Position numbers and translations under genes: made by a program. Shown in pieces: positions 1 through 18,714 of a stretch of DNA of 24,000 nucleotides. Origin of the DNA: Streptomyces griseus (lineage in GTDB: Bacteria > Bdellovibrionota > Bdellovibrionia > Bdellovibrionales > Bdellovibrionaceae); assembly GCA_943330705.2 (NCBI GenBank), contig CALQIT020000030.1:740-24739 (forward strand), in the 5' to 3' direction. Each line of letters opens with the position of its first letter. Positions within the stretch are counted from its first letter, which is position 1. Under the pieces are notes generated by a model, which searched no databases, had not been told where the DNA came from, and worked only from the letters and a program-made list of their open reading frames with translations.

Positions 1-810
1 ATAAAACCCATCAACAAACCTCGGGATCTGGGCTTGAACTGGAGTATCGATCGCAATGTATCGACGACGGATTTGACAAGCACAATTAATGAAATTGCTG
101 GTTTGCCGACCATACCTCAAGCGAACGATCTATTTTCAGCGCAAACTTTGGCTCCGCTTCTGTTAAATCCAGGATCAGCTTACAACGGAACAAGATGGAT
201 CTACACAGAATCAGGATGGGCCGACTGGCAAGGCATTGGAAATATCCGGGTCGCGGTTCGCCAGGACCATTTAGTTTATCTGCATGACCAGCGGCCAACA
301 CTTTTTAATTCTTTGACCGACCGGTTTGAAACGAATCCAATTCAGATCAATGAAAAAAATGAATTCGTCTGGCGCGTTCGCGAGCAGCTAAAAAAAATGA
401 CGCTCGAGCCCTTTCGCCTTAGCCGTAAAGATCTTCCTGAACCCACTTTCGTCAGTGAAAAACTAAAAAAGTGTTATGATCTTTTTCATAAAAAAGAAGT
501 GAGCTCGATTGAAAAACGGAAATGCGAAGACCGCTTAACAATTGAACTTTATGATTGGTTTATCAACCTTCGCACTCAACCCGAGGAATCGATCACTGAA
601 GAGGCAAAGAAAAAGTTTTTGCGCAACTATGCAGTCTTTCTTGCCGATAAAAAAACAGCAGAGCGCAATGAAATTTTAGGAAGGGTCTGGGACATACCCA
701 ACCACTTTTACCTAGAGAAATCGGTGACCGAAGAAATCCTTAAAGGCCTTCAAAACGTCATCACTCCCAGCCAAAAAGGAACTTCCGACGCGTCAGCAAC
801 TAAACACTGA
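1..810 (+). CDS. Sulfatase-family (alkaline-phosphatase superfamily) protein, C-terminal fragment; the 5' end lies outside the window
   Basis: Frame 1 is open from base 1 (IKPINKPRDLG precedes the listed TTG at 34), so the gene is truncated by the window edge. The segment STTDLTSTINEIAGLPTIPQANDLFSAQTLAPLL...IYTESG...LFNSLTDRFETNPI resembles the C-terminal part of sulfatase domains (D-l-xPT-l-e-aGl ... G-sl-pll ... LyDl-xDp-E-xN). It is followed by a helical, charged extension of about 150 aa. The family call is from motif resemblance only. Confidence 0.45.
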   Translation: MKPINKPRDLGLNWSIDRNVSTTDLTSTINEIAGLPTIPQANDLFSAQTLAPLLLNPGSAYNGTRWIYTESGWADWQGIGNIRVAVRQDHLVYLHDQRPTLFNSLTDRFETNPIQINEKNEFVWRVREQLKKMTLEPFRLSRKDLPEPTFVSEKLKKCYDLFHKKEVSSIEKRKCEDRLTIELYDWFINLRTQPEESITEEAKKKFLRNYAVFLADKKTAERNEILGRVWDIPNHFYLEKSVTEEILKGLQNVITPSQKGTSDASATKH

Positions 811-1406
811 GTCATCGGTGTCATATCAGATTGCATCGCAGTAAAAAAAGAACTGGGAATATAACTTCGCTCTAATAAAGTGACAAAAGTATCCTTATCA
901 ATCTGCAAACTACCAGAATTAATTTGGCAATTCTTCTCAAGGCCCAATCCATAGGTTACCAAAGGACTGCCTTGATGCTTTTGCCAAGCCCAATCCAGTT
1001 CGTAGGCAATGGGCTGAAGTCCCCGTGGATTGCTGGCCAAAATATGGGGACCGCCAACCTGAGCCCACGACAAAGTATTTCCTTTTAGGAAAAAAGCCGA
1101 GCTCTCGATGATGACTTGATAGGAGTTTTTATTTTCTACTTTTAACAACTGATCGTTGGCGGCAGTCATTGCTGACTTCAGCTGAAAAACACTTTCTGAA
1201 ATCGAGTCCTTCGGGACGCCGACCCGGGTTGCTTCTTCGTCAAAGCCCTGCTGCAAGAAATCAAGAAGTAGTTGATTATTTCTTTGCGCGATCTCAGGAG
1301 GTCCCCAGGCCGTCGATATTACAAAAAGACCAGAGGACTCAAGCGCCAAGAACTGAGGTTTTGGACGAAAACTTTTGCCGGAATACGAACGCTCTTGAAT
1401 TTGCAT
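750..1406 (-). CDS. PP2C-like protein with substituted metal-binding residues (putative pseudophosphatase); last gene of the FHA operon
   Basis: The ORF track gives 750..1493, but its first 29 codons overlap the upstream gene. The ATG at 1406..1404 forms TAATG with the upstream stop (TAA 1408..1406), giving 218 aa. By-eye alignment to bacterial PP2C (PstP/Stp type) gives four matches. AFFLKGNTLSWAQVGGPHILA aligns with a-l-GN-L-x-vahvGDSRxyl. LFVISTAWGPPE sits at the vaDGMGGH position. DTFVTLLERSYIP sits at the GDxlLLCSDGL position. The C-terminal PFWLGVMTF sits at the DNiTvvvv position. The fold-like pattern is kept while the conserved Asp residues are replaced. Confidence 0.5.
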   Translation of the reverse strand: MQIQERSYSGKSFRPKPQFLALESSGLFVISTAWGPPEIAQRNNQLLLDFLQQGFDEEATRVGVPKDSISESVFQLKSAMTAANDQLLKVENKNSYQVIIESSAFFLKGNTLSWAQVGGPHILASNPRGLQPIAYELDWAWQKHQGSPLVTYGLGLEKNCQINSGSLQIDKDTFVTLLERSYIPSSFFTAMQSDMTPMTQCLVADASEVPFWLGVMTF

Positions 1407-3316
1407 TAGCGAAATCCATATTTCTTTAATTTCGCTTTTGCCAAACCATAGTGTTTTACCTCGGGAATACTTTGTTCGACTATTTTTTTCCATTTCAATT
1501 TTGCGGCTTCGACTTCGTTAACGCCTTCTTCGATAATCGATTCCTCCCAGATAGCCTTCATTTGCTTTTCGATTTCACGACTGATGTCGGTCATTTGGCC
1601 ACGCACGGCCTCATTGGTCGGATTGATTTCTAGGGCCTGCTTCAAAAGCTGGTGGGCCTTTTTCAGTTCGCCACGTTTGCGTGAAGCATCGGCCTGCTTT
1701 TCATAGTCTTGCTGTTTGTTTGTCAAATTTTGTTCGATCGAAGCTATTTTTCGTTTTGCTTGGGGTCTTAATTCGTCCGGATCCGGTAAGTTCGAGTTGA
1801 TAACTCTTTGGTAGTCTGAAATTGCATCCAAATAGCGGCCACTTTGTTCTGTTCTTGTCGCTTGTCTGAAAAGATCCTGTAATCTCTTTACTTTGACGGA
1901 ACGCTCGGCCTGCAACTGACGATTCTGCAATCTTTGAGCACTAAAATTTTCGACAGAGGCCTTCAAGGATTCAATCGCTGGATGATTGGGACCCAAGGCC
2001 AGCACTGAGGACAAGCACTGCTCTAGATCTTGCATTTCCAAACTGGGATTGAGCTTCTTTTTGCAATGCTCAGCCTGCTTGCGAATCTTCTCGTCGGTCT
2101 CTGCCATCTTAGCTGTTAGATCTTCTTGCTTGTGGCGGTCATTCATCGCATCAATTGCAACTTGGCAATAGCCTTCGAGTTCTTTCGAGTTCATGTAATA
2201 GGGAACAAGTTCATGGATTTTGATAATTTCTTGCCGCGCTAACTCATACTTGCCATCTTTAAAAAGCTTATCCGCCAGACGATAGCTGTCTGTAACAAAC
2301 TCCTTTTGCTCTTTTGAAAGCTTTGTTAATGGATCCATTCTATCGATTCCTGATTTTTTAGGATCCGACGTGTTCTCCTCGGGAAATAGGGCAAATAAAA
2401 TGGCAACCACAAGCCCTAAACCAATTCCCATTCGCACTAAATTTTTTCGTTTGCCCTTATTTAGAACAGCCAGAACCGCTGGTACCGCCATGGCCCCATA
2501 GGAAATTCGATTCTGAACTTCATATGATTCTGGCAAATAGTTGGGCTGCAAGTAAGGGTCTGCTTCTGGGACATACAGGGCTGGAGCCCGCATCTCTTCA
2601 GAGATCTGTCCAACACGATCTTCGAAACTGGTATCCCGCAATTCGAACTGCATCGTCCACGAAGACACCTGAATCGCATCGCCGCTGGCCAAAACTAACC
2701 ACTCATTGGGTGATAGCGACAGGCCATTCACCATGGTGCCATTTGCACTTTCTAGGTCCCGGACCTTGAAAACACCATCGAATCTTTGAACTTCAAAATG
2801 CCGCCGACTCATTTGCACATAATCTATAAAAATAGAATTTCCCGTATCGCGCCCGGCTATCCAAGATTGGCCCTCAAGGCGAAATACTTTCAGTAGCTCA
2901 TTGGCTTCGTTATAAATTTTTAAAAAAGGAACTTCAGTGGCAATTGCCGCAACGAATGTGCGATCTGAAAAATCATGGACAATTTCTTTGTTCTGATTGG
3001 CAGGATCAACACTTGGCAAGTGGGCTTCATCCACAAATTCGAATTCGTAAGGTGGAACACTAAATTTGGATTCGTGCTGCAAATCAAGCCCTGCGATTTT
3101 TTCTCCGTTTGCAAACAAGTCGCCATACCGCGAAAGAACTTCAACGATCCAACCAATACCCGTATGTCGAATCTTAAAGTGCTGCCGCGAAATTCGTTTA
3201 TCCGAGTCCAACATTAGGTCACACTGATTGCTGCGACCAGCGATATATTCACGCCCAATCTCTAAATTGAGCTCGGTTACCATTGCAGAGTTGAGTAGAA
3301 TTCTCAACTTAGGCAT
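1406..3316 (-). CDS. Membrane protein with tandem N-terminal FHA domains, one TM helix and a long C-terminal TPR-like/coiled-coil region
   Basis: 636 aa. FHA-a spans about res 18-95 (IAGRSNQCDLML...ISRQHFKI...LSRYGDLFANGEKI) and has a degenerate S-x-NG-T motif. FHA-b spans about res 144-226 (IAGRDTGNSIFI...MSRRHFEV...DLESANGTMVNG) and is canonical. The TM helix is about res 293-311 (LVRMGIGLGLVVAILFALF). The remaining 320 aa or so are helical repeats rich in K/E/Q (for example GKYELARQEIIKIHELVP, SGRYLDAISDYQRVINSNLPDP, LKKAHQLLKQALEINPTNEA). The start ATG at 3316 overlaps the upstream stop (TGATG). Confidence 0.85.
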   Translation of the reverse strand: MPKLRILLNSAMVTELNLEIGREYIAGRSNQCDLMLDSDKRISRQHFKIRHTGIGWIVEVLSRYGDLFANGEKIAGLDLQHESKFSVPPYEFEFVDEAHLPSVDPANQNKEIVHDFSDRTFVAAIATEVPFLKIYNEANELLKVFRLEGQSWIAGRDTGNSIFIDYVQMSRRHFEVQRFDGVFKVRDLESANGTMVNGLSLSPNEWLVLASGDAIQVSSWTMQFELRDTSFEDRVGQISEEMRAPALYVPEADPYLQPNYLPESYEVQNRISYGAMAVPAVLAVLNKGKRKNLVRMGIGLGLVVAILFALFPEENTSDPKKSGIDRMDPLTKLSKEQKEFVTDSYRLADKLFKDGKYELARQEIIKIHELVPYYMNSKELEGYCQVAIDAMNDRHKQEDLTAKMAETDEKIRKQAEHCKKKLNPSLEMQDLEQCLSSVLALGPNHPAIESLKASVENFSAQRLQNRQLQAERSVKVKRLQDLFRQATRTEQSGRYLDAISDYQRVINSNLPDPDELRPQAKRKIASIEQNLTNKQQDYEKQADASRKRGELKKAHQLLKQALEINPTNEAVRGQMTDISREIEKQMKAIWEESIIEEGVNEVEAAKLKWKKIVEQSIPEVKHYGLAKAKLKKYGFR

Positions 3317-4371
3317 CAGTAACCCCCTTCCATTTTAACTGTGCACTTATCGTAGCCCATCTTTGCTTCCCGATATTTAATATTGGTTGAATCCTTAATC
3401 ATTGTCATCGCGTTAGTAAAGGCCGCCCGGCACAGGCGATAATTGGTCTTATCCATATATTGCCGACCTTGCAAAAGATTGAAATCAACAACACCCTCAA
3501 ACTTTCGTTCGGCCTCTTGTTTGTACTTTTGCGCCAGCTGATGTTGTGGGTAGAAGGAAAGTGCCGCTTGAAAGGACTGAACTGCCCGGCCATATTGCCC
3601 CTGGCGATAATCACGAAAGCCCTGCTGATAGTGCTCATCGGAAATCTTAAAATTAATGCTCTCTTGACCTTTAAGACCCTTGATCTCATGCAACTTTTTC
3701 ACTTCCATTGCTGAGTCTTGGATTTCCTTTTCAATTTCAGAGTCACTGCGAATTTCTATAGCCCTCTTTTTTCCAGAATTTCCGCTAAACAATATTGCAG
3801 CACCAATAATAAGTACCGCGCCAATGACATACATTAAATTTTTATTTGAAGTCGACTCAGCTACCGGTGGCAAGTAGTTACTATGAGCTATCGGAGAATA
3901 CGTTGGGTTCGAAGTTGTGCCTCTAATCTCGGCGCTGGGTCGGACTTGCGGTTTCATAACAGGAATGGACCCGACGGCTTGCAATATGGGCTTAGTGACT
4001 TCTTTAGCAACACTAAGGTTTGAATTGCCACCACTAGCCACAGTGCTTGCGATCAAATTCTCAAAGTCCACCTGAACCTGCGTGTCACCGATCAGAAGAA
4101 CACTTCCATTGGTCAGCGAGCATTCTTCTTCCCGTTTGCCATTTACAAACAGTGCATTTTTTTGGCTGACGTTGCGGACCATTAGTCGGCCACTGTCAAT
4201 TCGAATAGCGGCATGGGTGCGGCTAACCTTTGAATCATGAATCAGGGCAATATCATTCTCTGGCCCACGGCCAATTGTAATTACAGCCTTATCAAAATTA
4301 TAACTTTTGTCGGTGCCTAAAATTTTGATTTTATATTTTAATGCCCGTGCCAAGATAGGGGCTGTACTCAT
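3316..4371 (-). CDS. FHA-domain membrane protein (FHA, one TM helix, C-terminal TPR-like domain)
   Basis: 351 aa. FHA spans about res 12-102 (ITIGRGPENDIAL...VSRTHAAIRID...NVSQKNALFVNGK). An S/T/P-rich linker follows. The TM helix is about res 178-196 (LMYVIGAVLIIGAAILFS). The C-terminal part is TPR-like (HYQQGFRDYRQGQYGRAVQSFQAALSFYPQHQLA). The start ATG at 4371 overlaps the upstream stop as ATGA. Confidence 0.85.
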   Translation of the reverse strand: MSTAPILARALKYKIKILGTDKSYNFDKAVITIGRGPENDIALIHDSKVSRTHAAIRIDSGRLMVRNVSQKNALFVNGKREEECSLTNGSVLLIGDTQVQVDFENLIASTVASGGNSNLSVAKEVTKPILQAVGSIPVMKPQVRPSAEIRGTTSNPTYSPIAHSNYLPPVAESTSNKNLMYVIGAVLIIGAAILFSGNSGKKRAIEIRSDSEIEKEIQDSAMEVKKLHEIKGLKGQESINFKISDEHYQQGFRDYRQGQYGRAVQSFQAALSFYPQHQLAQKYKQEAERKFEGVVDFNLLQGRQYMDKTNYRLCRAAFTNAMTMIKDSTNIKYREAKMGYDKCTVKMEGGY

Positions 4372-5975
4372 GCAGCGCCTCCTTGGACTTCATCCGCGGG
4401 ACTGAAGATGACCATGAAGTATTCGGGTTCGCCTGCTGATCCGCTGACGGATTGACAGCGAAGCAAAGCCTGGTTGCTATTGATTTCTAACTGGTCTTCG
4501 GCAATTTGCGAAGGATTGCGTTTGGCTCTATCTAACAGGTCGCCAATATTCTTCTGCAAGGCTTGGTCAGGAATGTAGTTAATACTCTGTCCTTGAATAC
4601 GTGCGGCCCCAACTGACGTTAGTCTTTCAAAGGCTTGATTGACGCCCAAAACAATTGAATCTCGACTGATTAACAGGGCGGGATAGCCAACCATAGATAA
4701 CACATTGCTAAGTTCTTGATCCTTTATCATGGAAGAGCCCATGGGTTTGGCCGAGTCACCGTGCAAGGATCGAGAAATTAAACTATTAACTGAAACAAGG
4801 ATTTCTTGCATGACCGGCAAACGAATATCGATGCTGGCTTGGTCCCGGCCTTCTCGCAAGGCCAGGTCCAACTCCTTTTTTAGCAATGAAAATGGGCGCT
4901 CAATTACTTTATACATAAAGAAAAAGATCAAAAAACCACAAAGGCTTGCTAGCATTAACATTTGCACAAATAGACTGACAGCTCGCCCATCATTAAAGGC
5001 TAAACTGCTGCTATCAAAAATCACCACCGCATAAGCCCGGGTCATATTTTCACCGATTTGGGGATCGTAAGCGACAATTGGGGCGCCAGCAGCGACTCGG
5101 CCGTCGGAAAGTTCTGCGGAATACTCCTTGGCTTGTGCCCTTAGCTTTTTGACGAATGCCAATTCCTTTTGCGGAGTGGTTCCGGTCAACGCTGGTGGCG
5201 CAAGAATATTTCCGTCCTTCGCTAAAATGTAAACTTGGTCGATGCCTTCTTCTTTGATAATTGGTTCAGAATCATATTCAGCAAACCGGCCATCTTTAAC
5301 CATTCGTGAATTGGCAGAAGCCAAAGACCGAGCAATGGTTAATGCCCGGCGCTTACTTTCTGAAGTGATACTTTCAGAGGTTATAAACTTCATTGGTAAA
5401 ATAGAAAGAAGCGTGACTAAAAGAACAAAAACAGTGGCAAATCCATAAATCACATTGCGGAACTCAAAGACCACCGGAAGGCGATAAACCGCAGGCAAGG
5501 CAACGTGTTCGATATAATGTTTGGCTTTTTCTAAATATCTTTCAACTGGACTGCCTGTTAACCCCGGTGAATTAACGGGTGACTCAACAGGTCCCGGCTG
5601 GGGAAAAGAGTGCTGGCCTGGCATTGCATAGGGTGAGACAGGTGCTCCTGCCGGCCGTAAAGTTGGCTGAGTCCCGACTTTGTCCTGGGCAAATATAATA
5701 TCAAATAGAATTTCGTGGACGCTCAGTTTATCACCAACTTTGGCGATGCTTGGCCGGTTGATCCGAACCCCATTAAGAAAGGTGCCATTACTGGATTGAA
5801 GATCCAAAATAACCAAGCGATCAGATAGGGCTTCGATCTCGAAATGTTCTTTAGAAATTCCTGTGCTTTGAAACTGAAAATCTGTTGTTGACCCGCGGCC
5901 AAACTTATTTTTGCCCTTTTTCAATTTGTAAATCTGGCCCGCTTGAGGGCCATTTAGCACCCTAATGGCCCACAT
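4368..5975 (-). CDS. FHA-domain sensor-type membrane protein: FHA, Pro-rich linker, TM, periplasmic loop of about 135 aa, TM, HAMP-like, PAS-like; no enzymatic output domain
   Basis: 535 aa. FHA spans res 1-95 (FGRGSTTDFQF...ISKEHFEIE...DLQSSNGTFLNG). The P-rich linker is res 100-145. TM1 is about res 174-195 (VIYGFATVFVLLVTLLSILPM). The extracytoplasmic loop is res 196-331 (YILAKDGNILAP...APIVAYDP...RAYAVVIFD, possibly Cache/PDC-like). TM2 is about res 332-355. The HAMP-like segment is KVIERPFSLLKKEL...MQEILVSVNSLISR. The PAS-like segment is about res 420-526 (ALLISRDSIVLGVNQAFERLTSVGAARIQGQSI). The protein ends right after the PAS-like region. The start overlaps the upstream DUF192 gene by 14 nt. 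Confidence 0.8.
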   Translation of the reverse strand: MWAIRVLNGPQAGQIYKLKKGKNKFGRGSTTDFQFQSTGISKEHFEIEALSDRLVILDLQSSNGTFLNGVRINRPSIAKVGDKLSVHEILFDIIFAQDKVGTQPTLRPAGAPVSPYAMPGQHSFPQPGPVESPVNSPGLTGSPVERYLEKAKHYIEHVALPAVYRLPVVFEFRNVIYGFATVFVLLVTLLSILPMKFITSESITSESKRRALTIARSLASANSRMVKDGRFAEYDSEPIIKEEGIDQVYILAKDGNILAPPALTGTTPQKELAFVKKLRAQAKEYSAELSDGRVAAGAPIVAYDPQIGENMTRAYAVVIFDSSSLAFNDGRAVSLFVQMLMLASLCGFLIFFFMYKVIERPFSLLKKELDLALREGRDQASIDIRLPVMQEILVSVNSLISRSLHGDSAKPMGSSMIKDQELSNVLSMVGYPALLISRDSIVLGVNQAFERLTSVGAARIQGQSINYIPDQALQKNIGDLLDRAKRNPSQIAEDQLEINSNQALLRCQSVSGSAGEPEYFMVIFSPADEVQGGAA

Positions 5976-6312
5976 ACAGCTCGTCTCCTGCTTGCAAATT
6001 TAGCTTCGCGGCAACACCCGCTTTGACCTCAACGACCGACGAAGCCCCCCAAATTGGGAACACCAATCGACCAGGTACGACGTTGCCTACAATTTTCTTA
6101 ACCCGCAAACTTGAATCAAGAAAAATGCAGTCGATTGCAAATTTCATAAAAAAAGTATGAATGCTATTGCAGTTGTGAATCCACAAACCGGATTGATTGC
6201 TTAATTCCGCCGTGCCCAATAAGCCTTTCATTCGTGGCCAAAAATTTTCTGCGACGTCAAGATCACCGATTAGAACTTCAGAATTAATTTTTTTCTTGAG
6301 TATTGCCATCAT
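5962..6312 (-). CDS. DUF192 (UPF0127/COG1430) family protein
   Basis: 116 aa. The pattern RMKGLLG...GLWIHNCNSIHTFFMKFAIDCIFLDSSLRVKKIV...SSVVEVKAGVAAKLNLQAGDEL matches the DUF192 signature (GLM-x...G-mlF...-v-FWMKNt-ipLDiiFld-xG-vv...yVLEl-aG...gi-xGd-v). No N-terminal signal peptide or TM helix is apparent. The start forms ATGA with the upstream TadC-like stop. Confidence 0.7.
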   Translation of the reverse strand: MMAILKKKINSEVLIGDLDVAENFWPRMKGLLGTAELSNQSGLWIHNCNSIHTFFMKFAIDCIFLDSSLRVKKIVGNVVPGRLVFPIWGASSVVEVKAGVAAKLNLQAGDELYVGH

Positions 6313-7211
6313 TTTCCACCGTAGTAGAAGCTAACGATAACCGGACCAAAGACGACCAGCATCACAGCCGGCATAATAAACAGCATCATTGGTACCAACA
6401 TAATTTGTGAAGCCCGGGCCCCTGCTTTTTCGGCCCGCACAAATCTTTCCAAACGAATTTGATTACTTTGATCCTTCAGCACCTTAGAAATACTTGCTCC
6501 CGTGGCATCGGCATCAACTAACACCGCAACAAAACTTGTGATGTCACCAATATCTAATCTTGTCGAAAGGCCCTTAAGGGCATCGGCCCTTGCCGATCCA
6601 AGCTTGATATCCTGCAATACGGTGCCAAGCTCCTGAGCCAAAACGCTATCACTTGCCTTGTCGACAATTTTTTGAATGGCTGCAATAAAGTCCAAACCAG
6701 CCTCAGTGGACAGGGCCAAAAGATCTGCAAAAAATGGTAGATCGGCGCGGACCGACATTTCCCGGCGGCCCTTTTCACTGCTGGCATAGATTCGTGGAAC
6801 CATCGCGCCCAGTGGAATTCCTAACAAACAAAAAAGCCAGGGTAACTCAAGATCAAGTCCGTAATTCAAGAAAGCAACAAAACCCGATACCAATATCGCC
6901 CAAAGAATCTGCAGGCCGATAAACTCATCAACATTTAGCTCTCGCGAAAGACCAGCCGTTAGTAAAATTTTTGCCACCCGTTTTCGGTAGTCGGGGCTTT
7001 TGATTCTGATGGCATGCTGAATTGTGAATACATGCACCAATGGGCGTGAAAAGTTGATCAAGGGGTTTTTCGATTTGGCGGGCTCGTTGCCACTGGCCCA
7101 TACCAACATTTCTTTGTCGTTGTTATTCGTAAGCATGGCAGACGTAAAAGTATAGACCGCCACTGCGGCCAAGAAGACGCCAAAAATTAAGAGTAAATCT
7201 GCGCTTCCCAT
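6309..7211 (-). CDS. TadC/TadB-like inner-membrane platform protein (type II secretion system F-domain family)
   Basis: The ORF track gives 6309..7241. I prefer the ATG at 7211 (MGSADLLLIFGVF...) because AGGGGAAG lies 5-6 nt upstream, whereas a 7241 start would overlap the divergent maf start. There is an N-terminal TM helix, then a central pair of TM helices. The T2SS-F-type core follows: LALSTEAGLDFIAAIQKIVDK...LAQELGTVLQDIKLGSARADALKGLSTRL...ITSFVAVLVDADATGASISKVLKDQSNQIRLERFVRAEKAGARASQIMLVPMMLFIMPAVMLVVFGP. Size (about 300 aa) and topology are typical of Flp/Tad pilus TadB/TadC. Confidence 0.8.
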   Translation of the reverse strand: MGSADLLLIFGVFLAAVAVYTFTSAMLTNNNDKEMLVWASGNEPAKSKNPLINFSRPLVHVFTIQHAIRIKSPDYRKRVAKILLTAGLSRELNVDEFIGLQILWAILVSGFVAFLNYGLDLELPWLFCLLGIPLGAMVPRIYASSEKGRREMSVRADLPFFADLLALSTEAGLDFIAAIQKIVDKASDSVLAQELGTVLQDIKLGSARADALKGLSTRLDIGDITSFVAVLVDADATGASISKVLKDQSNQIRLERFVRAEKAGARASQIMLVPMMLFIMPAVMLVVFGPVIVSFYYGGK

Positions 7212-7239
7212 TTTTCTTCCCCTGTGGTGAGTTAGTACC

Positions 7240-8520
7240 ATGCACCAACTCGTGTTAGCGTCAGAGTCGCCTCGCCGAAAACAACTGCTTTTGGAAGCAG
7301 GGTATTTTTTTGAGACTTTCTTAGTTAAAGTATCGGAACATCTTGAGAAAAACCTAAGTGTGGATGCGCAAATTCATGACATCGCCGGCAAAAAAGCTGA
7401 AGCCGCTTTTGCAGCATATAAGCCTTTGAAACAACAAGACTATTTACTGCTTTCTGCAGATACGATGGTTTGCCTTGAAGGACAGAATTTAGGCAAACCC
7501 CAAACCAAGGTCCAGGCCTGTCAATTTCTTCGACAACTTTCAGGTCGAGCCCACCAGGTCAAGACGGCCATTTGTTTGATCGAAGGACGTTGCCAAGGAG
7601 CAATTTTCTCAAGGGGGAAGACCCTATTTTCATTAGCGACCACCACCGTAAACTTTAGAAACTTATCGGATTCTGAAATTGAAAATTATGTTTCCAGCGG
7701 TGCCGCAATGGATAAAGCCGGCGGCTATGGAATTCAAGACAAGGGTGCTAATTTTGTAAGCTCTATCGACGGGCCCTATGACAACGTCGTTGGTTTGCCA
7801 CGAGATCTTTTGGCAACTTTACTTGGTGAAAATAATTTGCAGGTAGAAAAATCAATAATTTCGGTTGCGCAACAGATTCAAGCTCATGATCTTCGGCAAT
7901 GTGGCGCACAAATCGTCGCTGTTTCAAAATTACATTCCAGTGAAAAAGTTCGCGATCTTTACCAGAAAGGTCAGCATATTTTTGCAGAAAATTACGTGCA
8001 AGAAGCAATTTTAAAAATTGAAAACCTAAAAGACCTAGCACATATTCGTTGGCACTTTATTGGTCATTTACAAAAAAACAAAGTCAAATCTGTGGTCGGA
8101 CTATTTGATATAATTCACTCTGTAGATTCGGTTTTACTAGCTGAAATGATCGATCGAATCGCTCAGCAAAAAGGGCTTAAACAGAAAATATTAATTCAAG
8201 TCAACTTAGGAAACGAAGCCAGCAAAAGCGGATTTTCTGCAGAAAATCTGACCTCTGAAGTTGTTAAACTGAAGGATTTGAAGAACATTTGCGTCGTCGG
8301 TTGGATGGCGATGCCCCCCCCCTTTTCAATTCCGGAACAGGCCAGACCCTTTTTCTGTCAGTTGCGCAACCTGCGCGATCAATTTTTGCCATTGCTGCCC
8401 GAGGCCACAGCCCTGAGTATGGGGACCAGCTCGGATTATATAATTGCGGTTGAAGAAGGAGCTACTCTGGTTCGTCTTGGTACAATTATTTTTGGTGAAA
8501 GACCGCGCAAACAACCTTGA
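7240..8520 (+). CDS. Fusion protein: Maf-like nucleoside-triphosphate pyrophosphatase (N-terminal, about res 1-196) plus YggS-family PLP-binding protein (C-terminal, about res 205-424)
   Basis: Maf motifs: LVLASESPRRKQLLLEAG, LLSADTMV, MDKAGGYGIQDKG, GPYDNVVGLP. YggS motifs: IVAVSKLHS (PLP lysine), FAENYVQEA, IRWHFIGHLQKNKVK, IIHSVDS, LIQVNLGNEASKSGF, VVGWMAMPP, LSMGTSSDY, GATLVRLGTIIFGER. The ORF is a single uninterrupted 426 codons. Confidence 0.85.
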   Translation: MHQLVLASESPRRKQLLLEAGYFFETFLVKVSEHLEKNLSVDAQIHDIAGKKAEAAFAAYKPLKQQDYLLLSADTMVCLEGQNLGKPQTKVQACQFLRQLSGRAHQVKTAICLIEGRCQGAIFSRGKTLFSLATTTVNFRNLSDSEIENYVSSGAAMDKAGGYGIQDKGANFVSSIDGPYDNVVGLPRDLLATLLGENNLQVEKSIISVAQQIQAHDLRQCGAQIVAVSKLHSSEKVRDLYQKGQHIFAENYVQEAILKIENLKDLAHIRWHFIGHLQKNKVKSVVGLFDIIHSVDSVLLAEMIDRIAQQKGLKQKILIQVNLGNEASKSGFSAENLTSEVVKLKDLKNICVVGWMAMPPPFSIPEQARPFFCQLRNLRDQFLPLLPEATALSMGTSSDYIIAVEEGATLVRLGTIIFGERPRKQP

Positions 8521-8527
8521 TGCAGTC

Positions 8528-8556
8528 TTGCGTTGAGTTCAAAGAGGCCATACAAT
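8528..8556 (+). promoter_or_regulatory. Candidate sigma-70-type promoter for proC-divIVA-yggU (TTGCGT, 17 nt spacer, TACAAT)
   Basis: TTGCGT at 8528-8533, a 17-nt spacer, and TACAAT at 8551-8556. The element lies in the 105-nt gap after the maf-yggS stop and about 70 nt upstream of the proC start. This is sequence pattern only. Confidence 0.35.
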
Positions 8557-8625
8557 TTTTAAATAGAGAATCCGTTGCCAAACAAAGGGTCTCCGGATTT
8601 TTCAATATTCAAGTGGGAGCTTGCC

Positions 8626-9444
8626 TTGAAAATTCATCTTAAAATCGGCTTTATTGGCGTTGGTAACTTGGCCCAAACAGTGATTAAAGGTTTAATCGAA
8701 AACAAGGTTGTCGAGGCAAAATCAATATTTGGCTCTAATCGTTCCGACGGAAAATTACAAAAAATCGCAGACCTTTACGGTATAAATGCCTGTGCGACCA
8801 ACGAAGAAGTCGTCGACAAAGCTGATGTCATTGTCATAGCGACCAAACCGCAGGACCTGGCCGGGGCAATTGAACCCATTGCTTCGGTATTTACTGAAAA
8901 ACAAATGTTGATCTCGCTGGCGGCCGGCGTCACCCTTCGTCAGCTACGAAAAAAGTTGCCGCAATGTCGAATCGTTCGGCTAATGCCCAATACTCCGTCA
9001 CTTATTAGTCGTGGGGTCATTGGATTCGTCATGAATGAAGAGGACCCGGGATTGCAAACAATCGTCGAAGACCTGTTTGAGCCCCTTGGTTATGTTCTAA
9101 AGGTCGAAGATGAAGAAAAGTTTGAGGCACTGATGGTCTCTTGCTCGGCCGGTACTGGTTTTATTTTTGAGCTGATGATGTATTGGCAAGAGTGGATTGA
9201 AGAGCGCGGTTTTGATCCGGACACAGCTCGAAAAATGACTGTAGAAACTTTTCTAGGTGCCTCAATGCTGGCCTCGCAACAGAAAGAAGCTTCTTTGGAA
9301 GATCTGCTACTTAAGGTTTCTTCTAAAAAAGGTGTCACGGCAGCTGGACTTCAGTCCATGCGCGAGCTCGAAATTGAGCGAGCCCTGCGCTATTCTTTCG
9401 AAAAAGCAGCCCTTAGGAATCAGGAGCTTGCGAAAGAGACCTAA
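8626..9444 (+). CDS. proC: Pyrroline-5-carboxylate reductase
   Basis: KIGFIGVGNLAQTVIKGL is the Rossmann GxGxxA motif near the N-terminus. Other matches are VIVIATKPQD, LISLAAGV, VRLMPNTP and the C-terminal dimerisation region (SCSAGTGFIFELM..., SKKGVTAAGL). The ORF track starts at TTG 8575. I prefer the TTG at 8626 because GGGAG lies 6 nt upstream and it gives the usual short N-terminus. The exact start is uncertain. Confidence 0.9.
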   Translation: MKIHLKIGFIGVGNLAQTVIKGLIENKVVEAKSIFGSNRSDGKLQKIADLYGINACATNEEVVDKADVIVIATKPQDLAGAIEPIASVFTEKQMLISLAAGVTLRQLRKKLPQCRIVRLMPNTPSLISRGVIGFVMNEEDPGLQTIVEDLFEPLGYVLKVEDEEKFEALMVSCSAGTGFIFELMMYWQEWIEERGFDPDTARKMTVETFLGASMLASQQKEASLEDLLLKVSSKKGVTAAGLQSMRELEIERALRYSFEKAALRNQELAKET

Positions 9445-9496
9445 GCAGTCCTATCCTAATAAAGTGTGAATCAATTTTGCTTCAAGGAGGAGGCTC

Positions 9497-10042
9497 ATGA
9501 AAATCACTCCGATCGATATTGCCCATAAGGCTTTCAATAAAAAAATGTTTGGCCTGGATGAAAATCAAGTCCTTGACTTTTTGCAACAAATTGCCGCAAC
9601 CATGGAAGACCTTATTCATGAACGCAACAGCCTTAAAGAACTGGTGCGAGAAAAAGAGATTTCAGTCAATGAGTTGCGGGAACGTGATCAAATACTAAAA
9701 ACGACTATCGCTACAGCTTCGCAAATGGCCGACCGCCTTCGTCATGATGCCGACCGCGAAGCCAGATTGATTGTCGCTGATGCCCAGCAAAAATCTGAAA
9801 TCATTACTCGGGACGCAAGGGATTCTCTTAAAAAAACCTACACTGAGCTTTCTGAACTCAAGCGAGCCCGAATGCAGTTTGAAGCAAATCTGAAAGCGTT
9901 GGCACAGGCCCATATCACCTTACTTGAGCAAGGTGAAAAATTTATGCCAAATATAGGAATGCCCAATATGAACATTGAGGGCAGCCCAACTCTTGGACAT
10001 CGGACTACTGAAATTTCACCTTTGTCTTCCGAGCAACTGTGA
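9497..10042 (+). CDS. divIVA: DivIVA-domain protein
   Basis: The N-terminus MKITPIDIAHKAFNKKMFGLDENQVLDFLQQIA matches the DivIVA lipid-binding head (lTPxDIxxKxFxxxxrGYdxxEVDxFLdxv). Coiled-coil heptads follow. A strong RBS (AAGGAGGAGG) lies upstream of the ATG. Confidence 0.85.
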   Translation: MKITPIDIAHKAFNKKMFGLDENQVLDFLQQIAATMEDLIHERNSLKELVREKEISVNELRERDQILKTTIATASQMADRLRHDADREARLIVADAQQKSEIITRDARDSLKKTYTELSELKRARMQFEANLKALAQAHITLLEQGEKFMPNIGMPNMNIEGSPTLGHRTTEISPLSSEQL

Positions 10043-10326
10043 TTGTATCACGACCGGAGGGGGTTGTTGTCTCCCTCCATGTCGTTGCCAATGCCGCAAA
10101 AAATGAAATCATCGGCCCCTATAACAATGCCTTGAAAATAAAAATCAAGTCGCCACCGGTTGATGGCAAAGCCAATGCTGAAATCGAAAGCTTTCTTGCA
10201 AAAAAATTGGGAATCGCAAAAAGTCAGGTCAAAATTTTAAAAGGCGATAAATCAAAAATCAAAAAAGTTCTCATCCGCGGGGTCGCCATCGCTGCGGTCA
10301 CCAAGGCCTTCGGCCTCGATGGGTAA
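10039..10326 (+). CDS. yggU: YggU/DUF167 family protein
   Basis: 95 aa. VSLHVVANAAKNEIIG...LKIKIKSPPVDGKANAEIESFLAKKLGIAKSQVKILKGDKSKIKKVLI matches the DUF167 pattern (l-v-v-pxAkkxxi...l-v-v-apPvdGkANxxlixfLakxlxvxksxvxixxGxtsrxKxv-i). The GTG start forms GTGA with the divIVA stop. Confidence 0.8.
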   Translation: MIVSRPEGVVVSLHVVANAAKNEIIGPYNNALKIKIKSPPVDGKANAEIESFLAKKLGIAKSQVKILKGDKSKIKKVLIRGVAIAAVTKAFGLDG

Positions 10327-10358: not shown

Positions 10359-10778
10359 TTAGTGACTTAAGGCTGACGAATTTATCTTTGCAGAGGAAAA
10401 AGTTCCCTTTAGCAGCGGTGTGAGAGGATTCTTTTGCATTCCAACTTTTGTTGGCTGCTTGCAATCCGGACTGCCATTATAAGGGCGTCCAGATCTTTTC
10501 TTAGCAAGTTCAACTTGGCTGTCTGGCTTCACGTAGCAAGTCATATTGCTTGGCGAATAACAACATTTCTCCGTCGAGTGCGAGCCCACTCCAAAGCATT
10601 GCCGCTTGCCAGAATCCGAGCAAACTTGGTCCACGCATGCTTCCACACATTCGGCGCACCGAGGATCACAAGGCAGTGCCGCCGCAGGGGTTGGCGTCGG
10701 AGTTGAAGAAAGTACCGGTGAAGCTTTCACGACAAAGCTCGCGCTCAAAACTAGTAATCCAAATAAAATAGCCTTCAT
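10359..10778 (-). CDS. Small secreted cysteine-rich protein of unknown function
   Basis: 139 aa. GGGAG RBS lies 6 nt upstream of the ATG. The Sec signal peptide is MKAILFGLLVLSASFVVKASP. A TPTPTP linker follows, then 10 Cys packed into about 70 residues (PCDPRCAECVEACVDQVCSDSGKRQCF...KCCYSPSNMTCY...SPDCK), then a basic tail. No family is recognised. Three long + strand ORFs overlap it, but they lack a signal peptide, an RBS or any recognisable features. Confidence 0.6.
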   Translation of the reverse strand: MKAILFGLLVLSASFVVKASPVLSSTPTPTPAAALPCDPRCAECVEACVDQVCSDSGKRQCFGVGSHSTEKCCYSPSNMTCYVKPDSQVELAKKRSGRPYNGSPDCKQPTKVGMQKNPLTPLLKGTFSSAKINSSALSH

Positions 10779-10967
10779 ATTTTTCTCCCATTCATAGATT
10801 AACTAGAACACCGTAACTGTCACCTTTACCGCGACTGCCAGCGCCACTGAAAAGATTCTAGGCACAAAGAAAAATGAATTCAATGGCTTTTCGGCCACCT
10901 CATCCACCTCATGGTGCTGATAGACCGCATTGATTTCATTGATCTTGGCCCGGGTCACAAAGAAAAT

Positions 10968-12329
10968 TTAGCGATTACCTGGAGTAACTTTCGCCGATTC
11001 AGCAGGGACTTTTTGCCGCAGTTGTTGGCAAACCGGGACTCTTGCTTTAATCGCTGGATGGGCCGACTTCTCCTCTTGAATTGAAACTAGAATTCCAGAA
11101 TCCTTTGGATCGGGCTGGGCCTTGTAGGTAATTCTATAATTTATAACCTCTTCAATCAAGTTGGTTTGAATACGGCGATCCTTGTCCCGACCGCTGAATA
11201 TCTTCCAACGTTTTAAAGCCATAACAAAATCAACTTCCCGGCCCAAAAGGCCTCGAATTTTTTCCTGAATATAGCATTGAGGCAAAAGCTCAGCGACCTG
11301 AGACACATTTTGTTTTTGCTCTAGCACGGTTGCGGGTCTCATCATCACTTGAAAAGCAAACTCAACGGAATTTCGTTTATTGAAGGTTGAGGCCTCAATT
11401 TCCAAGGCTTTGCGAAAACGCTCTTCCAGGGAAGTCTGTGCACTCAAGATCAATTCATTGTTCTTTTTTACAATTTCTTGTTCACTGAAATTGTCTTTAC
11501 ATTGAATGGGCAGATTTGCGTAAAGACCTAAAAAGCCGGCCTCGACGCAAGCAAAGTTCGAGCCCGTGCCAAATTTATCACCCTCTTTGACTTCATGAGC
11601 AGTTGAGACAACTCCAAGTGCTAGGCCGTCGATGGACAATATTGGTGAACCAGAATTTCCGCGAACAATCGGGCATTGCGACATAAATACCAGAGGACTG
11701 AAGTCATTTTTAAAGTGGGGGTTCATCATTGAATTCTGAACCGCCTTACAGCGAATGGTATTCATCACGCCACCATCTTTTGTAGGTGACATTCGTCGGA
11801 CCGTCAAAATTTCTTGATCTTTAATTCCCCTTCGTGAAACCGATATTGGTGGTCGAAAAAAGTCAGACTCTACTCGTAAAAAAGCATAATCCGGACGAAT
11901 TGAGCCCTCACTTATCGGTGGGCTAACATGAATAATCTCTTTGCACCAGCGACGCTCCTCTGGCCGTCCTCGAGTTTTTGGCATGATGATCAAAATTTTA
12001 TTAGCACACGCGGCTTTTTCTTTCCACAGGTCTTCGGGAATGCAGTGAAGATTGGTCGCCACCAGATCACGGCCGACAAGAAAAGCCGTGCAAACACCAT
12101 TCGGACGAATTAACGCGCCAACATTTATCTCGCATTCGCTGTCATCCGCGCAGCTTAAATTCCATTGTATCGCAGATGTCGCGGGCGGCGGGCTACCGAA
12201 GGAAGTCGGATCTTGCGCCGATGCATGCAATAGAACAACCGGAGGTTGCGCCTTGCCTTGGCTGTTTAAAAGAGCACTGATTACCAAGGCTTGAAGAAAA
12301 ATGACCGCTACAAAAAAATAATTGCGCAT
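10968..12329 (-). CDS. Secreted trypsin-like (S1/chymotrypsin-fold) serine protease with a C-terminal extension of about 180 aa of unknown function
   Basis: The signal peptide is MRNYFFVAVIFLQALVISALL. Catalytic-triad motifs appear in the correct order: VATNLHC (His ~95), RPDYAFLRV (Asp ~147) and RGNSGSPIL (Ser ~226). Residues ~275-453 resemble no family I recognise. A GAGGA RBS lies 7 nt upstream, immediately after the rhodanese stop. Confidence 0.75.
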   Translation of the reverse strand: MRNYFFVAVIFLQALVISALLNSQGKAQPPVVLLHASAQDPTSFGSPPPATSAIQWNLSCADDSECEINVGALIRPNGVCTAFLVGRDLVATNLHCIPEDLWKEKAACANKILIIMPKTRGRPEERRWCKEIIHVSPPISEGSIRPDYAFLRVESDFFRPPISVSRRGIKDQEILTVRRMSPTKDGGVMNTIRCKAVQNSMMNPHFKNDFSPLVFMSQCPIVRGNSGSPILSIDGLALGVVSTAHEVKEGDKFGTGSNFACVEAGFLGLYANLPIQCKDNFSEQEIVKKNNELILSAQTSLEERFRKALEIEASTFNKRNSVEFAFQVMMRPATVLEQKQNVSQVAELLPQCYIQEKIRGLLGREVDFVMALKRWKIFSGRDKDRRIQTNLIEEVINYRITYKAQPDPKDSGILVSIQEEKSAHPAIKARVPVCQQLRQKVPAESAKVTPGNR

Positions 12330-12340
12330 TTTAAAATCCT

Positions 12341-12694
12341 CTAAGGTTCGGCCTGAAGGCCCTTGATCCCACCTAGTATATAAAAGGAATTGATCAATCC
12401 TTTCGAGTCCAGTTCTTCAGCAATCGCTTGTGACAAAGTTCCAGTCTGGCAAACGACGACAATCGGGTAATGGTCAGGAAGTTTTCGCTGACTCACTTCC
12501 GCAAGAATTCTTGTTACGGCGGTAAGTTCGCTTTGCATTTCGAAATCAAAAACCAGCGACACTTTTTGGATATGCGAAAGATCTCTAGCATGACAACAAC
12601 CAGAGAAATCAAGACCCGGATGGACTAAAAGAAAGGGAATTTGCGCGCGCACTAAGTTATCAAATTGAAAAAAGCCAATAGGGGCGGCAGTCAT
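12341..12694 (-). CDS. Single-domain rhodanese-like protein
   Basis: 117 aa. PIVVVCQTGTLSQAIAEELDSKGLINSFYILGGIKGL matches the rhodanese active-site loop and C-terminus (vvvyC-x-x-G-x-x-S...L...Gf-nv-xl-GG), which is GlpE/PspE-like CxxGxxS. The start forms ATGA with the MFS stop. Confidence 0.65.
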   Translation of the reverse strand: MTAAPIGFFQFDNLVRAQIPFLLVHPGLDFSGCCHARDLSHIQKVSLVFDFEMQSELTAVTRILAEVSQRKLPDHYPIVVVCQTGTLSQAIAEELDSKGLINSFYILGGIKGLQAEP

Positions 12695-13950
12695 GCTCCC
12701 GCTCCCGCACTTTGCTTTTTTGCAGTTTCTGGCAACTGAGCAAATAAAAAAGTGGTGATCAAAAAGCCCAGTAATGCAATAAATCCCCCGGACAAAAATG
12801 GACTGCTCTGGGTGAAGTGTTGATAAAGAATACCGCCCAAAGCTGGGCCTAAAATCCGACCTAGGGATGCGGCACTTTGTGCAATTCCCAAAACTAGACC
12901 TTGCTCCTCAGCCCCACTTAATAAACTAATGCTGCCCAGAACTGAGGGGTTGGTGAAGCTATTACCGACACCTAAACAAGTCATCACCACCGCCAAACCG
13001 GCCAAGCTTGGGACAAAGGGAATTGCTGCGATACTTAATCCCAGTACCAAAAGGCCAAATACCATCATTCTGCGCTCGCCAACCACTGGTAGTAGTTTTC
13101 GTACCAAGTAACCCTGACAAAAAACTGAAATCAAACCCACGTAAGCAAACCCATAACTGACTTCGCGGATTCCCCATTGATATCGATCCCCTAAAAATAG
13201 AATTAGAGTTGCCTCCATGGTCGACATGGCAAAAGACGAAAGCAGATAGACAATAATCATGGGCCCAAGCAGCGGCCTGCCGACGTATTTAAAAAGCACC
13301 AGCAAGCGATTTTGACGCTTCTCTAAAGCGGGTTCGATGTGATGTTTTGCCCTTAGATGCAAGGACTCGGTCAAATACTTCAGTCCCAGAATGAAGATGA
13401 TCAAACAAAAGATAGAAACGAAAATTCCGGCAAAGCCCGTACCAAAATGTTTTTCAGAAGAAAACGTTTGACCCCATGTTGTAAGAAAACCACCCAGAGC
13501 CGGCCCAATTAGAAATCCTAGACCAAAGGCTGCCCCAATCAATGCCATGCCTTTTGAACGCTCTTTAGGCGGTGTGATATCCGAGATGTAGGCCGCGGCG
13601 GTCGAGATACTGCCCGCAAAAAATCCAGCTAAAATTCGTGATAGAAACAGCATCTCTAGACTTCTTGAAAAGGCAAACAAAAGATACGAAAGACCCTCGC
13701 CCAAAAGGCAAAACAAAAGAATGGGCTTGCGTCCCTTGCGGTCGCTGAGTCTTCCCCAAAATGGCGAAAAAATAAACTGGACGCCCGAATAAACCGACAT
13801 CAACAATCCAACCTGAAAAGCCGATGCACCAAAGTCCCGGGCTAAAAGCGGAATCATCGGGATAATTACACCGAACCCAACTAAATATAAGAATACGATC
13901 AAGAAAATGATCCTTAGTTGAGCACGTCTAGGATCTATGGAGTCCGTCAT
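12691..13950 (-). CDS. MFS transporter (DHA1/tetracycline-efflux-like)
   Basis: 419 aa with about 12 predicted TM segments. MFS motif A is present between TM2 and TM3 (GRLSDRKGRKPILL). The PALGG repeat is typical of the family. Confidence 0.85.
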   Translation of the reverse strand: MTDSIDPRRAQLRIIFLIVFLYLVGFGVIIPMIPLLARDFGASAFQVGLLMSVYSGVQFIFSPFWGRLSDRKGRKPILLFCLLGEGLSYLLFAFSRSLEMLFLSRILAGFFAGSISTAAAYISDITPPKERSKGMALIGAAFGLGFLIGPALGGFLTTWGQTFSSEKHFGTGFAGIFVSIFCLIIFILGLKYLTESLHLRAKHHIEPALEKRQNRLLVLFKYVGRPLLGPMIIVYLLSSFAMSTMEATLILFLGDRYQWGIREVSYGFAYVGLISVFCQGYLVRKLLPVVGERRMMVFGLLVLGLSIAAIPFVPSLAGLAVVMTCLGVGNSFTNPSVLGSISLLSGAEEQGLVLGIAQSAASLGRILGPALGGILYQHFTQSSPFLSGGFIALLGFLITTFLFAQLPETAKKQSAGAGA

Positions 13951-13986
13951 TGATTCCCTCGTATCTTCAAGCCATAATTGATAATT

Positions 13987-15069: not shown

Positions 15070-15110
15070 GGAGTTTCACTTTTACGTTACCTTCTTTGCG
15101 TGAGGCGCCA

Positions 15111-18552: not shown

Positions 18553-18714
18553 ACAGATGCAAATATCGGAGATTACGCCACACAGCAACAATTATCCACA
18601 AGGCCGAGCATCAACAGATCCAACCTCGAGTGAAAAGCTATTCTCTGCCATTGACCGACAGAAATACCCAGCCTAAACCATTGGCAACTGCCCGCTTAAA
18701 AAAGGACTTAAAAT

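Follow-up and report, generated by a model that had tools for sequence, protein, structure and literature searches.

Bacterial predators use pili of the Tad/Kil type as contact weapons, and the six-gene tadC operon analysed here, found on a 24-kb stretch of contig CALQIT020000030.1 (the window, taken at its full length of 24,000 nucleotides), has its closest described relatives in the operon Bd0470–Bd0475 of Bdellovibrio bacteriovorus HD100 and in the Kil clusters of Myxococcus xanthus. Bd0470 is named TadC in the literature; it is the reciprocal best match of CC_2940 and also of KilH, with Bd0110 as the counterpart of KilG/TadB (Seef et al. 2021). Transposon insertion in this gene (Bd0470::tn) leaves cells unable to attach to, kill or round prey, whereas insertion in the gene of an FHA protein further along the operon (Bd0474::tn) leaves cells that attach without killing or rounding prey; both mutants were complemented (Duncan et al. 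2019). A 2025 study placed Bd0470–Bd0475 in one operon, described Bd0474 as two cytoplasmic FHA domains with an extracytoplasmic TPR domain, confirmed by two-hybrid its binding to the TPR protein Bd0075, which has a GYF-like N-terminal domain, and predicted with AlphaFold-Multimer a contact between Bd0473 and Bd0475 (interface predicted template modelling score 0.604); the study makes no mention of a phosphatase, PP2C, kinase, DUF192 or TadC, and Bd0475 appears in the literature only as a "hypothetical protein". A July 2026 preprint finds tadC essential and TadC-mCherry localised to the invasive pole, and it places the gene away from tadB, beside TPR, FHA and PAS genes. The main text of a RomR proximity-network paper mentions none of the operon genes. 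In Myxococcus, kilH has MXAN_4649 (FHA) and MXAN_4648 (FHA and TPR) as its neighbours; killing depends on KilD (FHA and TPR), and the ATPase KilF has an FHA domain of its own. A 2025 review singled out the FHA-rich Tad/Kil accessory proteins as promising, uncharacterised regulator candidates.

The window matches B. bacteriovorus HD100 gene for gene. Order, strand and domains agree one for one (TadC, DUF192, FHA-PAS, FHA-TPR, two FHA plus TPR, small soluble protein), and so do the tight junctions, the maf, proC and divIVA genes upstream, and the convergent sulfatase gene and ExbB/ExbD pair downstream. The two differ in lineage, the window coming from a metagenome scaffold (ENA; the sequence is also in the metagenome-assembled genome GCA_943328825.2) of an uncultured Pseudobdellovibrionaceae-like organism, and in detail: numbering the genes g1 to g6 in order of transcription, g4 has 351 residues versus 384, g5 has 636 versus 680, and maf is fused to yggS in the window. 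A first interpretation made from the letters of the window, which we call the sequence-only reading, had held this gene set to be uncharacterised, a description that cannot stand for the ortholog of a published operon with mutants in Bd0470 and Bd0474 and a two-hybrid partner. What is added here is the assignment of the last gene as a pseudo-PP2C, the conservation of the coupled junctions across the order, predictions at the level of single residues, and a link between DUF192 and Tad loci. On balance we favour the view that the six genes are the Bdellovibrionales tadC operon, whose products would assemble an inner-membrane FHA complex with a dead PP2C-like adaptor and gate a step that follows attachment to prey.

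Open reading frame calls on the window yield six minus-strand genes running from 7211 to 750, and the same six products (300, 115, 535, 351, 636 and 218 residues) appear in public gene calls made independently for the source scaffold, with g2 at 116 residues in the window reading and beginning one codon later in the public call. Read directly, the junctions are overlaps of 4 nt between g1 and g2 (ATGA, 6309–6312), 14 nt between g2 and g3 (5962–5975), 4 nt between g3 and g4 (4368–4371), 1 nt between g4 and g5 (TGATG, 3314–3318) and 1 nt between g5 and g6 (TAATG, 1404–1408, with the g6 start at 1406); five of the six start codons follow a purine-rich stretch that resembles a Shine-Dalgarno site. 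The sequence-only reading had described a minus-strand block of six genes joined by start/stop overlaps, led by a platform gene with maf as its divergent neighbour, and we recover all five junctions at the same positions and the same gene order at the upstream edge. The outer limit of 7241 that it gave for the block does not hold for the first gene, which starts at 7211, because the N-terminus of the orthologs reads MGSAELLL. A divergent gap of 28 bp (7212..7239), as read from the sequence and its start codons, thus lies between tadC, which starts at 7211 on the minus strand, and maf-yggS, which starts at 7240 on the plus strand, so that the promoters of tadC and maf must each lie within the coding sequence of the other gene, that of the operon inside maf. 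At the opposite end g6 overlaps the convergent sulfatase gene 3' to 3' by 61 nt (750..810; genes 12966–13622, plus strand, and 13562–15175, minus strand, in the coordinates of locus L001), which delimits the block on this side too and marks the end of the operon.

This arrangement is conserved well beyond the window. A scan of relatives with one genome per species, in which synteny was followed by tblastn with the window proteins, gave 80 loci, all from the Bdellovibrionales; four B. bacteriovorus strains and a number of complete Bdellovibrio genomes are among them. Wherever the flank is long enough, g1–g6 keep the same order and strand, which answers, within this order, the check on synteny in relatives that the sequence-only reading had proposed, and protein identity drops along the operon from about 64% for g1 through 50, 40, 31 and 35% to 30% for g6. 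The junctions overlap or are at most 5 nt apart in most species, the 14-nt g2/g3 overlap recurs in 65 of 73, and maf, proC and divIVA upstream are likewise conserved. Such overlap geometry, kept across an order, would fit translational coupling of the six genes.

The first gene, g1 (6309..7211, minus strand), encodes a 300-residue inner-membrane platform protein of the TadC (CpaH/KilH) type. Its assignment to the T2SSF/TadC type from the sequence is borne out by a single T2SSF domain in Pfam (PF00482, 1.2e-17, residues 171–298), accompanied by four transmembrane segments predicted from hydropathy. Homologs at 58–72% identity are abundant and are named TadC or tight adherence protein C by their sources, and the B. 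bacteriovorus proteins match g1 at 63–64% identity over the full length and within conserved synteny, identifying it as the ortholog of Bd0470. Profile and motif scans found no ATPase, second T2SSF gene, secretin, prepilin peptidase, Flp motif or Hanks kinase in the 24-kb window, in line with the earlier remark that no TadA/CpaF ATPase, TadB partner, secretin, pilin or prepilin peptidase adjoins the gene; nor is there a tadB, tadA or other tad gene in the window or its 10-kb flanks (about 21 kb of the 454,870-bp source scaffold were read). The only match to the Flp pilin motif lies inside an ABC (ATP-binding cassette) permease gene and was rejected. The same split is reported in B. bacteriovorus, so the absence of tad genes beside tadC is a trait of the lineage and no ground for exclusion, and the label "orphan" once given to g1 is misplaced: by orthology it is the Tad machine's own TadC, the ortholog of KilH. 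We infer that g1 supplies the TadC platform subunit to a Tad/Kil-like pilus of the predator and that TadB, ATPase, secretin and pilins come from other loci. Three of its threonines, Thr63, Thr85 and Thr225, are conserved in at least 97% of 62–79 species and could be phospho-sites or structural residues.

The Myxococcus system offers the second comparison. In its cluster 2 (MXAN_4648–4651) the platform gene kilH is likewise flanked by genes for an FHA protein and an FHA-TPR protein, its Tad genes are also split between loci, and the Kil clusters are rich in FHA domains; the statement in the sequence-only reading that Kil clusters encode FHA-domain proteins proved right (MXAN_4649, MXAN_4648, KilD and KilF). 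The likeness of g3–g5 to MXAN_4648, MXAN_4649 and KilD is drawn from published domain tables only. There are differences as well, in that kilH stands beside kilG (TadB), kilB and pilin genes, KilD is described as cytoplasmic, the ATPase carries an FHA domain, and the Kil clusters list no DUF192 or PP2C-like protein.

Between g2 and the last gene of the operon lie three minus-strand genes for membrane proteins that together carry four FHA domains. g3 (4368..5975; 535 residues, ortholog of Bd0472) consists of an N-terminal FHA domain (residues 5–86, 5718..5963), a Pro-rich linker, a transmembrane segment, a periplasmic domain of about 135 residues, a second transmembrane segment, a helical linker and a C-terminal PAS-like domain (approximately residues 425–525, 4401..4703). 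g4 (3316..4371; 351 residues, ortholog of Bd0473) has one cytoplasmic FHA domain (residues 22–100), a transmembrane segment (179–197) and a periplasmic TPR-containing domain, and g5 (1406..3316; 636 residues, ortholog of Bd0474) has two cytoplasmic FHA domains (residues 16–97 and 152–217), a transmembrane segment (293–311) and a periplasmic helical/TPR domain. These architectures rest on Pfam and NCBIfam profiles and on hydropathy, which finds two membrane segments in g3 (residues 180–198 and 335–353) and one each in g4 and g5, a layout that places the FHA domains in the cytoplasm and the TPR parts outside it. Pfam scores for FHA are 6e-14 (52.7 bits) in g3, 2.4e-13 (50.7 bits) in g4 and 2.5e-24 (85.9 bits, in two stretches) in g5, against a curated cut-off of 20.7 bits, and TPR_2 matches g4 at 3e-05 and g5 at 1.1e-07; four FHA domains on three membrane proteins, two of them FHA-TPR proteins, had been anticipated from the sequence. 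The FHA-HAMP-PAS architecture proposed for g3 survives in two of its three parts. Its FHA domain is clear and its PAS domain, weak in the window sequence itself (0.022), is matched in 14 of 28 orthologs (individual PAS families in 10–14 of the 28, best 1e-06) and gives a weak PDB match to the PAS domain of a sensor protein (3a0s), but the HAMP profile matches neither g3 of the window nor the 28 orthologs nor the isolated linker. A single-sequence AlphaFold2 (AF2) model of g3 residues 150–535 has a predicted local distance difference test (pLDDT) value of 51.9, too poor for judging HAMP or the periplasmic fold.

The Gly-Arg pair and the Ser of Ser-x-x-His are invariant or nearly so in all four FHA domains. 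In g3 all five binding residues, which are canonical (G26, R27, S41, H44 and N63), are conserved in 74 of 74 sequences; in g4, G34 and R35 are kept in 70 of 71, S50 in all 71, and H53 and N72 in 70 of 71 each. The first FHA domain of g5 keeps Gly, Arg, Ser and His in 62 of 62 sequences with Asn replaced by Tyr or Phe, and the second keeps Gly and Arg in 62 of 62, Ser in 61 and Asn in 62, with Gln at the His position in 41 of the 62. The best PDB matches are true phosphothreonine readers, mycobacterial TB39.8, GarA and OdhI, at 1e-11 to 1e-16 (mycobacterial FHA domains at 6.6e-16 for g3), and OdhI is also the best NCBIfam model for g4 and g5 (2.1e-09 and 2.5e-15). The likeness to GarA and OdhI extends to the domain and not to the layout, since GarA unites motif and FHA domain in one small soluble protein, whereas here they would lie in separate proteins, with phosphorylation hypothetical. 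We found no mention, in the literature searched, of the invariance of the phosphothreonine-contacting Arg and Ser in all four domains. The inter-FHA linker of g5 contains a further threonine, Thr120 (codon given as window positions 1046–1048), that is conserved in at least 97% of 62–79 species as a candidate phospho-site or structural residue.

These same domains can be read in another way, the main alternative, which we regard as unlikely: g3–g5 could be a phospho-independent scaffold of the SctD/YscD/PrgH kind, forming a collar round the TadB–TadC platform with a TPR link to the periplasm and no kinase, and with g6 as a structural adaptor. The cytoplasmic domain family of YscD works without phosphate. 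Its model, Yop-YscD_cpl, is matched above the 33.2-bit cut-off by g3 (43.2), g4 (43.7) and g5 (60.4 bits), and the order of N-terminal cytoplasmic FHA-like domain, one transmembrane segment and periplasmic domain is that of SctD (YscD/PrgH/EscD) in the type III secretion system. MXAN_4649, beside kilH, is annotated as PrgH-like. A kinase is also missing from the neighbourhood: a tblastn search with a PknB query found no Hanks-type kinase at E<=1e-3 within 10 kb of tadC in 86 loci, and matches in the window had E values above 1, at chance level, which agrees with the profiles and with the earlier statement that the window holds no Ser/Thr kinase; a literature search on Ser/Thr kinases in Bdellovibrio returned nothing usable. 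The PP2C-fold protein, finally, is predicted to be inactive through loss of its metal ligands. Against such a scaffold stand the phosphate-contacting Arg and Ser, invariant in four domains and 62–74 species despite overall identities of 31–40%, which is hard to explain without a phospho-ligand, and the PDB matches, in which YscD reaches only 0.03 compared with 1e-11 to 1e-16 for the phosphothreonine readers. The periplasmic parts are TPR-containing or helical, and ring-building domains were not found; membership of the SctD family itself was rejected, as the TIGR02500 match reaches 16.4 bits where 86 are required and covers residues 2–51 only. Taken together, residue conservation and PDB matches make genuine binding of phosphopeptides likelier than a merely structural, FHA-like role, short of proof.

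The last gene of the operon, g6 (750..1406, minus strand), encodes a soluble protein of 218 residues, the ortholog of Bd0475, which has no transmembrane segment by hydropathy. Pfam and NCBIfam gave no match for the single sequence, and a word-indexed homology search with g6 alone found two proteins only. A profile built from 50 orthologs in related loci, in contrast to the single sequence, places the PP2C phosphatase tPphA at the top of the PDB (E 0.002–0.003), followed by a SpoIIE-family protein, and sub-threshold Pfam matches to SpoIIE and PP2C_2 appear in 9 and 4 of the 50 orthologs. AF2 with an alignment of 60 sequences gives a confident model (pLDDT 89.7, predicted template modelling score 0.87), and a Foldseek search with this model finds 138 PDB matches at E<=0.001, of which the top 50 listed are all of PP2C fold or SpoIIE family: tPphA at 2.4e-12 (template modelling score 0.68), then PppA of the type VI secretion system (PDB 6jkv) at 1.7e-11 (0.66), then PstP, Stp1, SpoIIE, RsbX and RssB. 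The family is small and stands apart: at E<=0.001 it has 346 cluster representatives in a set of 1.84 billion proteins, and most of those listed are full-length, at about 215–230 residues.

The fold is that of an enzyme, and the catalytic metal site is gone. Across 58 orthologs D34 of tPphA corresponds to Trp in all 58 and D231 to Pro in 55, positions that were mapped by eye, like D18, from the secondary structure of the model and PP2C motifs and without superposition; in the printed profile alignment D119 is replaced variably by A, Q, C, S or G and D193 by R, S, G or H, and no metal-ligand position has a conserved Asp. With these ligands lost, g6 is a pseudo-phosphatase that falls outside the enzyme family and cannot dephosphorylate, and the dead PP2C of the sequence-only reading thereby acquires a structural basis. 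The only such residue retained is an Arg kept in 53 of the 58 (Arg14), which we take, on PP2C motifs, to be the phosphate-contacting Arg. The family also has an invariant threonine, Thr60 (codon 1227..1229), present in 57 of 58 sequences within a loop of low confidence (residues 51–70, pLDDT 61–67) whose consensus is D-V-E-V-T-S-P-F-E-F, with Phe at position +3 in 47 of 58. The E-V-T-S-P-F part of this loop resembles the ETTSVF phospho-motif that is read by the FHA domain of GarA/OdhI. Thr60 may be a phospho-acceptor and FHA ligand, and we offer it as a lead only. The literature searched makes no mention of the Bd0475 family as a pseudo-PP2C with an invariant loop threonine, and the last unannotated gene of the operon now has a fold.

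Known systems illustrate how such a protein might be used. The PpkA/PppA/Fha1 set of the type VI secretion system in Pseudomonas aeruginosa also encodes FHA and PP2C-fold proteins together with an envelope machine, and PppA is among the best structural matches of g6; the operon differs from it in that the PP2C fold is without metal ligands, no kinase lies nearby, and the four FHA domains sit on membrane proteins. The C-terminal domain of RssB and the SpoIIE/RsbX proteins use the PP2C fold as a binding or regulatory module, as g6 would; unlike them, g6 stands alone as a protein of 218 residues, belongs to a small, separate family and invariably closes the tadC operon. A further PP2C-like pseudophosphatase is human TAB1.

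The second gene, g2 (5962..6312, minus strand; ortholog of Bd0471), is a DUF192 protein, as had been read from the sequence: PF02643 matches at 63.9 bits (1.6e-17) against a cut-off of 27. It has neither signal peptide nor transmembrane segment, keeps about 50% identity across the order, and finds its best solved structure in an uncharacterised protein (PDB 3m7a, 1.4e-06). Plasmid-borne homologs of g2 are annotated DUF192 in 11 of 11 cases, and the four inspected (L087–L090) all lie in type IV filament loci, a sample that is small and was chosen by similarity to a Tad-linked query. On a Moraxella bovis plasmid the order is cpaB, secretin, ATPase, T2SSF, T2SSF, DUF192, TadE; on two Streptomyces plasmids it is CpaF, T2SSF, T2SSF, a small open reading frame, TadE, TadE, TadG, a LysM protein and, last, DUF192; and on an Alkaliphilus plasmid DUF192 directly follows a prepilin peptidase gene. 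No link between DUF192 and pili was found in the searchable literature. This recurrence suggests a Tad-associated subfamily of DUF192, which is probably a general and hitherto undescribed accessory of Tad assembly; if the recurrence holds genome-wide in the Tad loci of unrelated phyla, it would add a new conserved component to a well-studied pilus.

We envision the operon as working in the following way. TadC would be made together with five dedicated accessory proteins, as the overlaps conserved across the order suggest, and g2 would act as a small cytoplasmic accessory of Tad assembly. g3–g5 would form an inner-membrane complex whose cytoplasmic FHA domains recruit phosphorylated partners to the platform from the cytoplasmic side, while the periplasmic TPR and helical domains of g4 and g5 would bind envelope partners such as a homolog of Bd0075, for which the two-hybrid result with Bd0474 is the precedent. 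g3, the most sensor-like member with its periplasmic domain and cytoplasmic PAS, would be the likeliest entry point of a signal, and g6 would serve as an adaptor that either holds a phospho-site or offers the loop around the invariant Thr60 as an FHA ligand. The output, to judge from the phenotype of the Bd0474 mutant, would be a gate on a step after attachment, that is, on prey remodelling and invasion. Physical contact of the FHA module with the Tad platform and its dependence on phosphothreonine are both inferred here, the latter from conserved sequence. The sequence-only reading had likewise proposed that the FHA proteins form a module accessory to a Tad/Kil-like machine with its core encoded elsewhere. 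That main idea fits all findings; its orphan TadC, its uncharacterised gene set and its HAMP domain need correction. A bolder elaboration, which we think improbable as a whole, is a phospho-switch on a dead enzyme: a distant kinase would phosphorylate Thr60 of g6, or g6 would clamp a phospho-site through Arg14, a membrane FHA domain would read the result, and the polar Tad machine would be converted from attachment to prey remodelling and invasion, with g3 as the sensor of prey contact and DUF192 as a general Tad assembly factor in Actinomycetota, Bacillota and Pseudomonadota. The residues to mutate can be named, namely the FHA Arg and Ser and Thr60 of the pseudo-phosphatase, and the model organism is tractable.

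Several observations weigh against the reading of a phosphothreonine-dependent module that gates the pilus. Since TadC mutants and Bd0474 mutants behave differently, the downstream genes may work by a route other than the pilus; moreover, polar effects of the transposon insertions are not fully excluded, and complementation needed the Ptac promoter. The sole confirmed partner of an FHA protein, Bd0075, is a non-Tad protein, and none of the FHA proteins is known to contact TadB, TadC or TadA. In the sequences themselves, no Hanks-type kinase was found linked to the locus in the 86 loci searched, both FHA domains of g5 are partly non-canonical (Asn to Tyr or Phe in the first, His to Gln in the second), and the FHA domains exceed the cut-off of the type III secretion model Yop-YscD_cpl. 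As for g6, the window's own motif is degenerate (DEEATRVGV), and Thr60 may be merely structural, given that S-P-F-E reads as a helix N-capping box.

The difference between the mutants also counts for a second alternative, in which the downstream genes serve another envelope machine, such as a gliding machine or an energy transducer of the TolA/GltG kind at the invasive pole, and share no more than a transcript with tadC. g5/Bd0474 and Bd0075 would then mirror GltG, with two FHA domains, a transmembrane segment and a periplasmic part, and GltJ, with a GYF domain, a transmembrane segment and a periplasmic part. GltG indeed has two FHA domains before its transmembrane segment and binds the AglRQS motor; Bd0075 has its GYF-like N-terminal domain; weak NCBIfam matches to GltG occur in g3, g4 and g5, the one in g4 (2.7e-10, residues 23–161) reaching past the FHA core; Bd0474 mutants attach and TadC mutants do not; and the convergent sulfatase gene is closely followed by a conserved ExbB/ExbD pair. 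We nevertheless judge this quite unlikely. The GltG scores reach at most 39.4 bits against an equivalog cut-off of 650, and the C-terminal, periplasmic parts of the operon's proteins contain TPRs and are not TonB-C-like, for which reasons membership of the GltG family was rejected; the coupling to tadC is kept in 80 species, FHA genes flank kilH in Myxococcus too, and a convergent gene separates ExbB/ExbD from the operon. That the six reading frames are no functional unit at all and their overlaps incidental, by chance or as an artefact of annotation, has a negligible probability and is refuted by synteny and junctions: internal promoter-like and terminator-like matches at chance level (12 against 10.0 +/- 2.8 and 12 against 8.7 +/- 2.7) neither support nor exclude internal signals, while order, strand and junction geometry are kept in 80 species at 30–64% protein identity, an independent gene caller gives the identical six products, and published mutants in two of the operon genes have phenotypes.

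Around the operon, a few further features may be recorded. The divergent neighbour is a 426-residue reading frame (7240–8520, plus strand) that fuses Maf (residues 3–196) to a YggS-like pyridoxal phosphate-binding domain (Ala_racemase_N, residues 216–422); the fusion covers 98–99% of the query also in loci L008, L029, L037 and L042, and most relatives match the Maf half only. In B. bacteriovorus extra open reading frames lie between maf and tadC (8404–10085 in locus L051), whereas in the window maf abuts tadC. Beyond the convergent sulfatase gene, the ExbB/MotA-like and ExbD pair occupies 15238–16281 in locus L001, just past the left edge of the window, and 18685–19725 in locus L051; it is conserved from the organism of the window to B. 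bacteriovorus. As g5 shares the architecture of GltG, whose motor partner is TolQR-like, a link is conceivable. Farther into the window, at 10359–12329 on the minus strand, a 139-residue Cys-rich protein with a signal-peptide-like hydrophobic N-terminus and no family match stands beside a 453-residue trypsin-like protease (Trypsin_2, 2.7e-09), also with a hydrophobic N-terminus, and the pair resembles hydrolase cargo of a predator. A small rhodanese-like protein (12341–12694, minus strand; a weak match, 0.0011) overlaps by 4 nt the gene of a major facilitator superfamily transporter (12691–13950, minus strand). Finally, the signal peptide of an ABC substrate-binding protein of the Bmp/PnrA type (18715–18810, plus strand) holds a short internal repeat, SFLVSFLASFLASSLASA.

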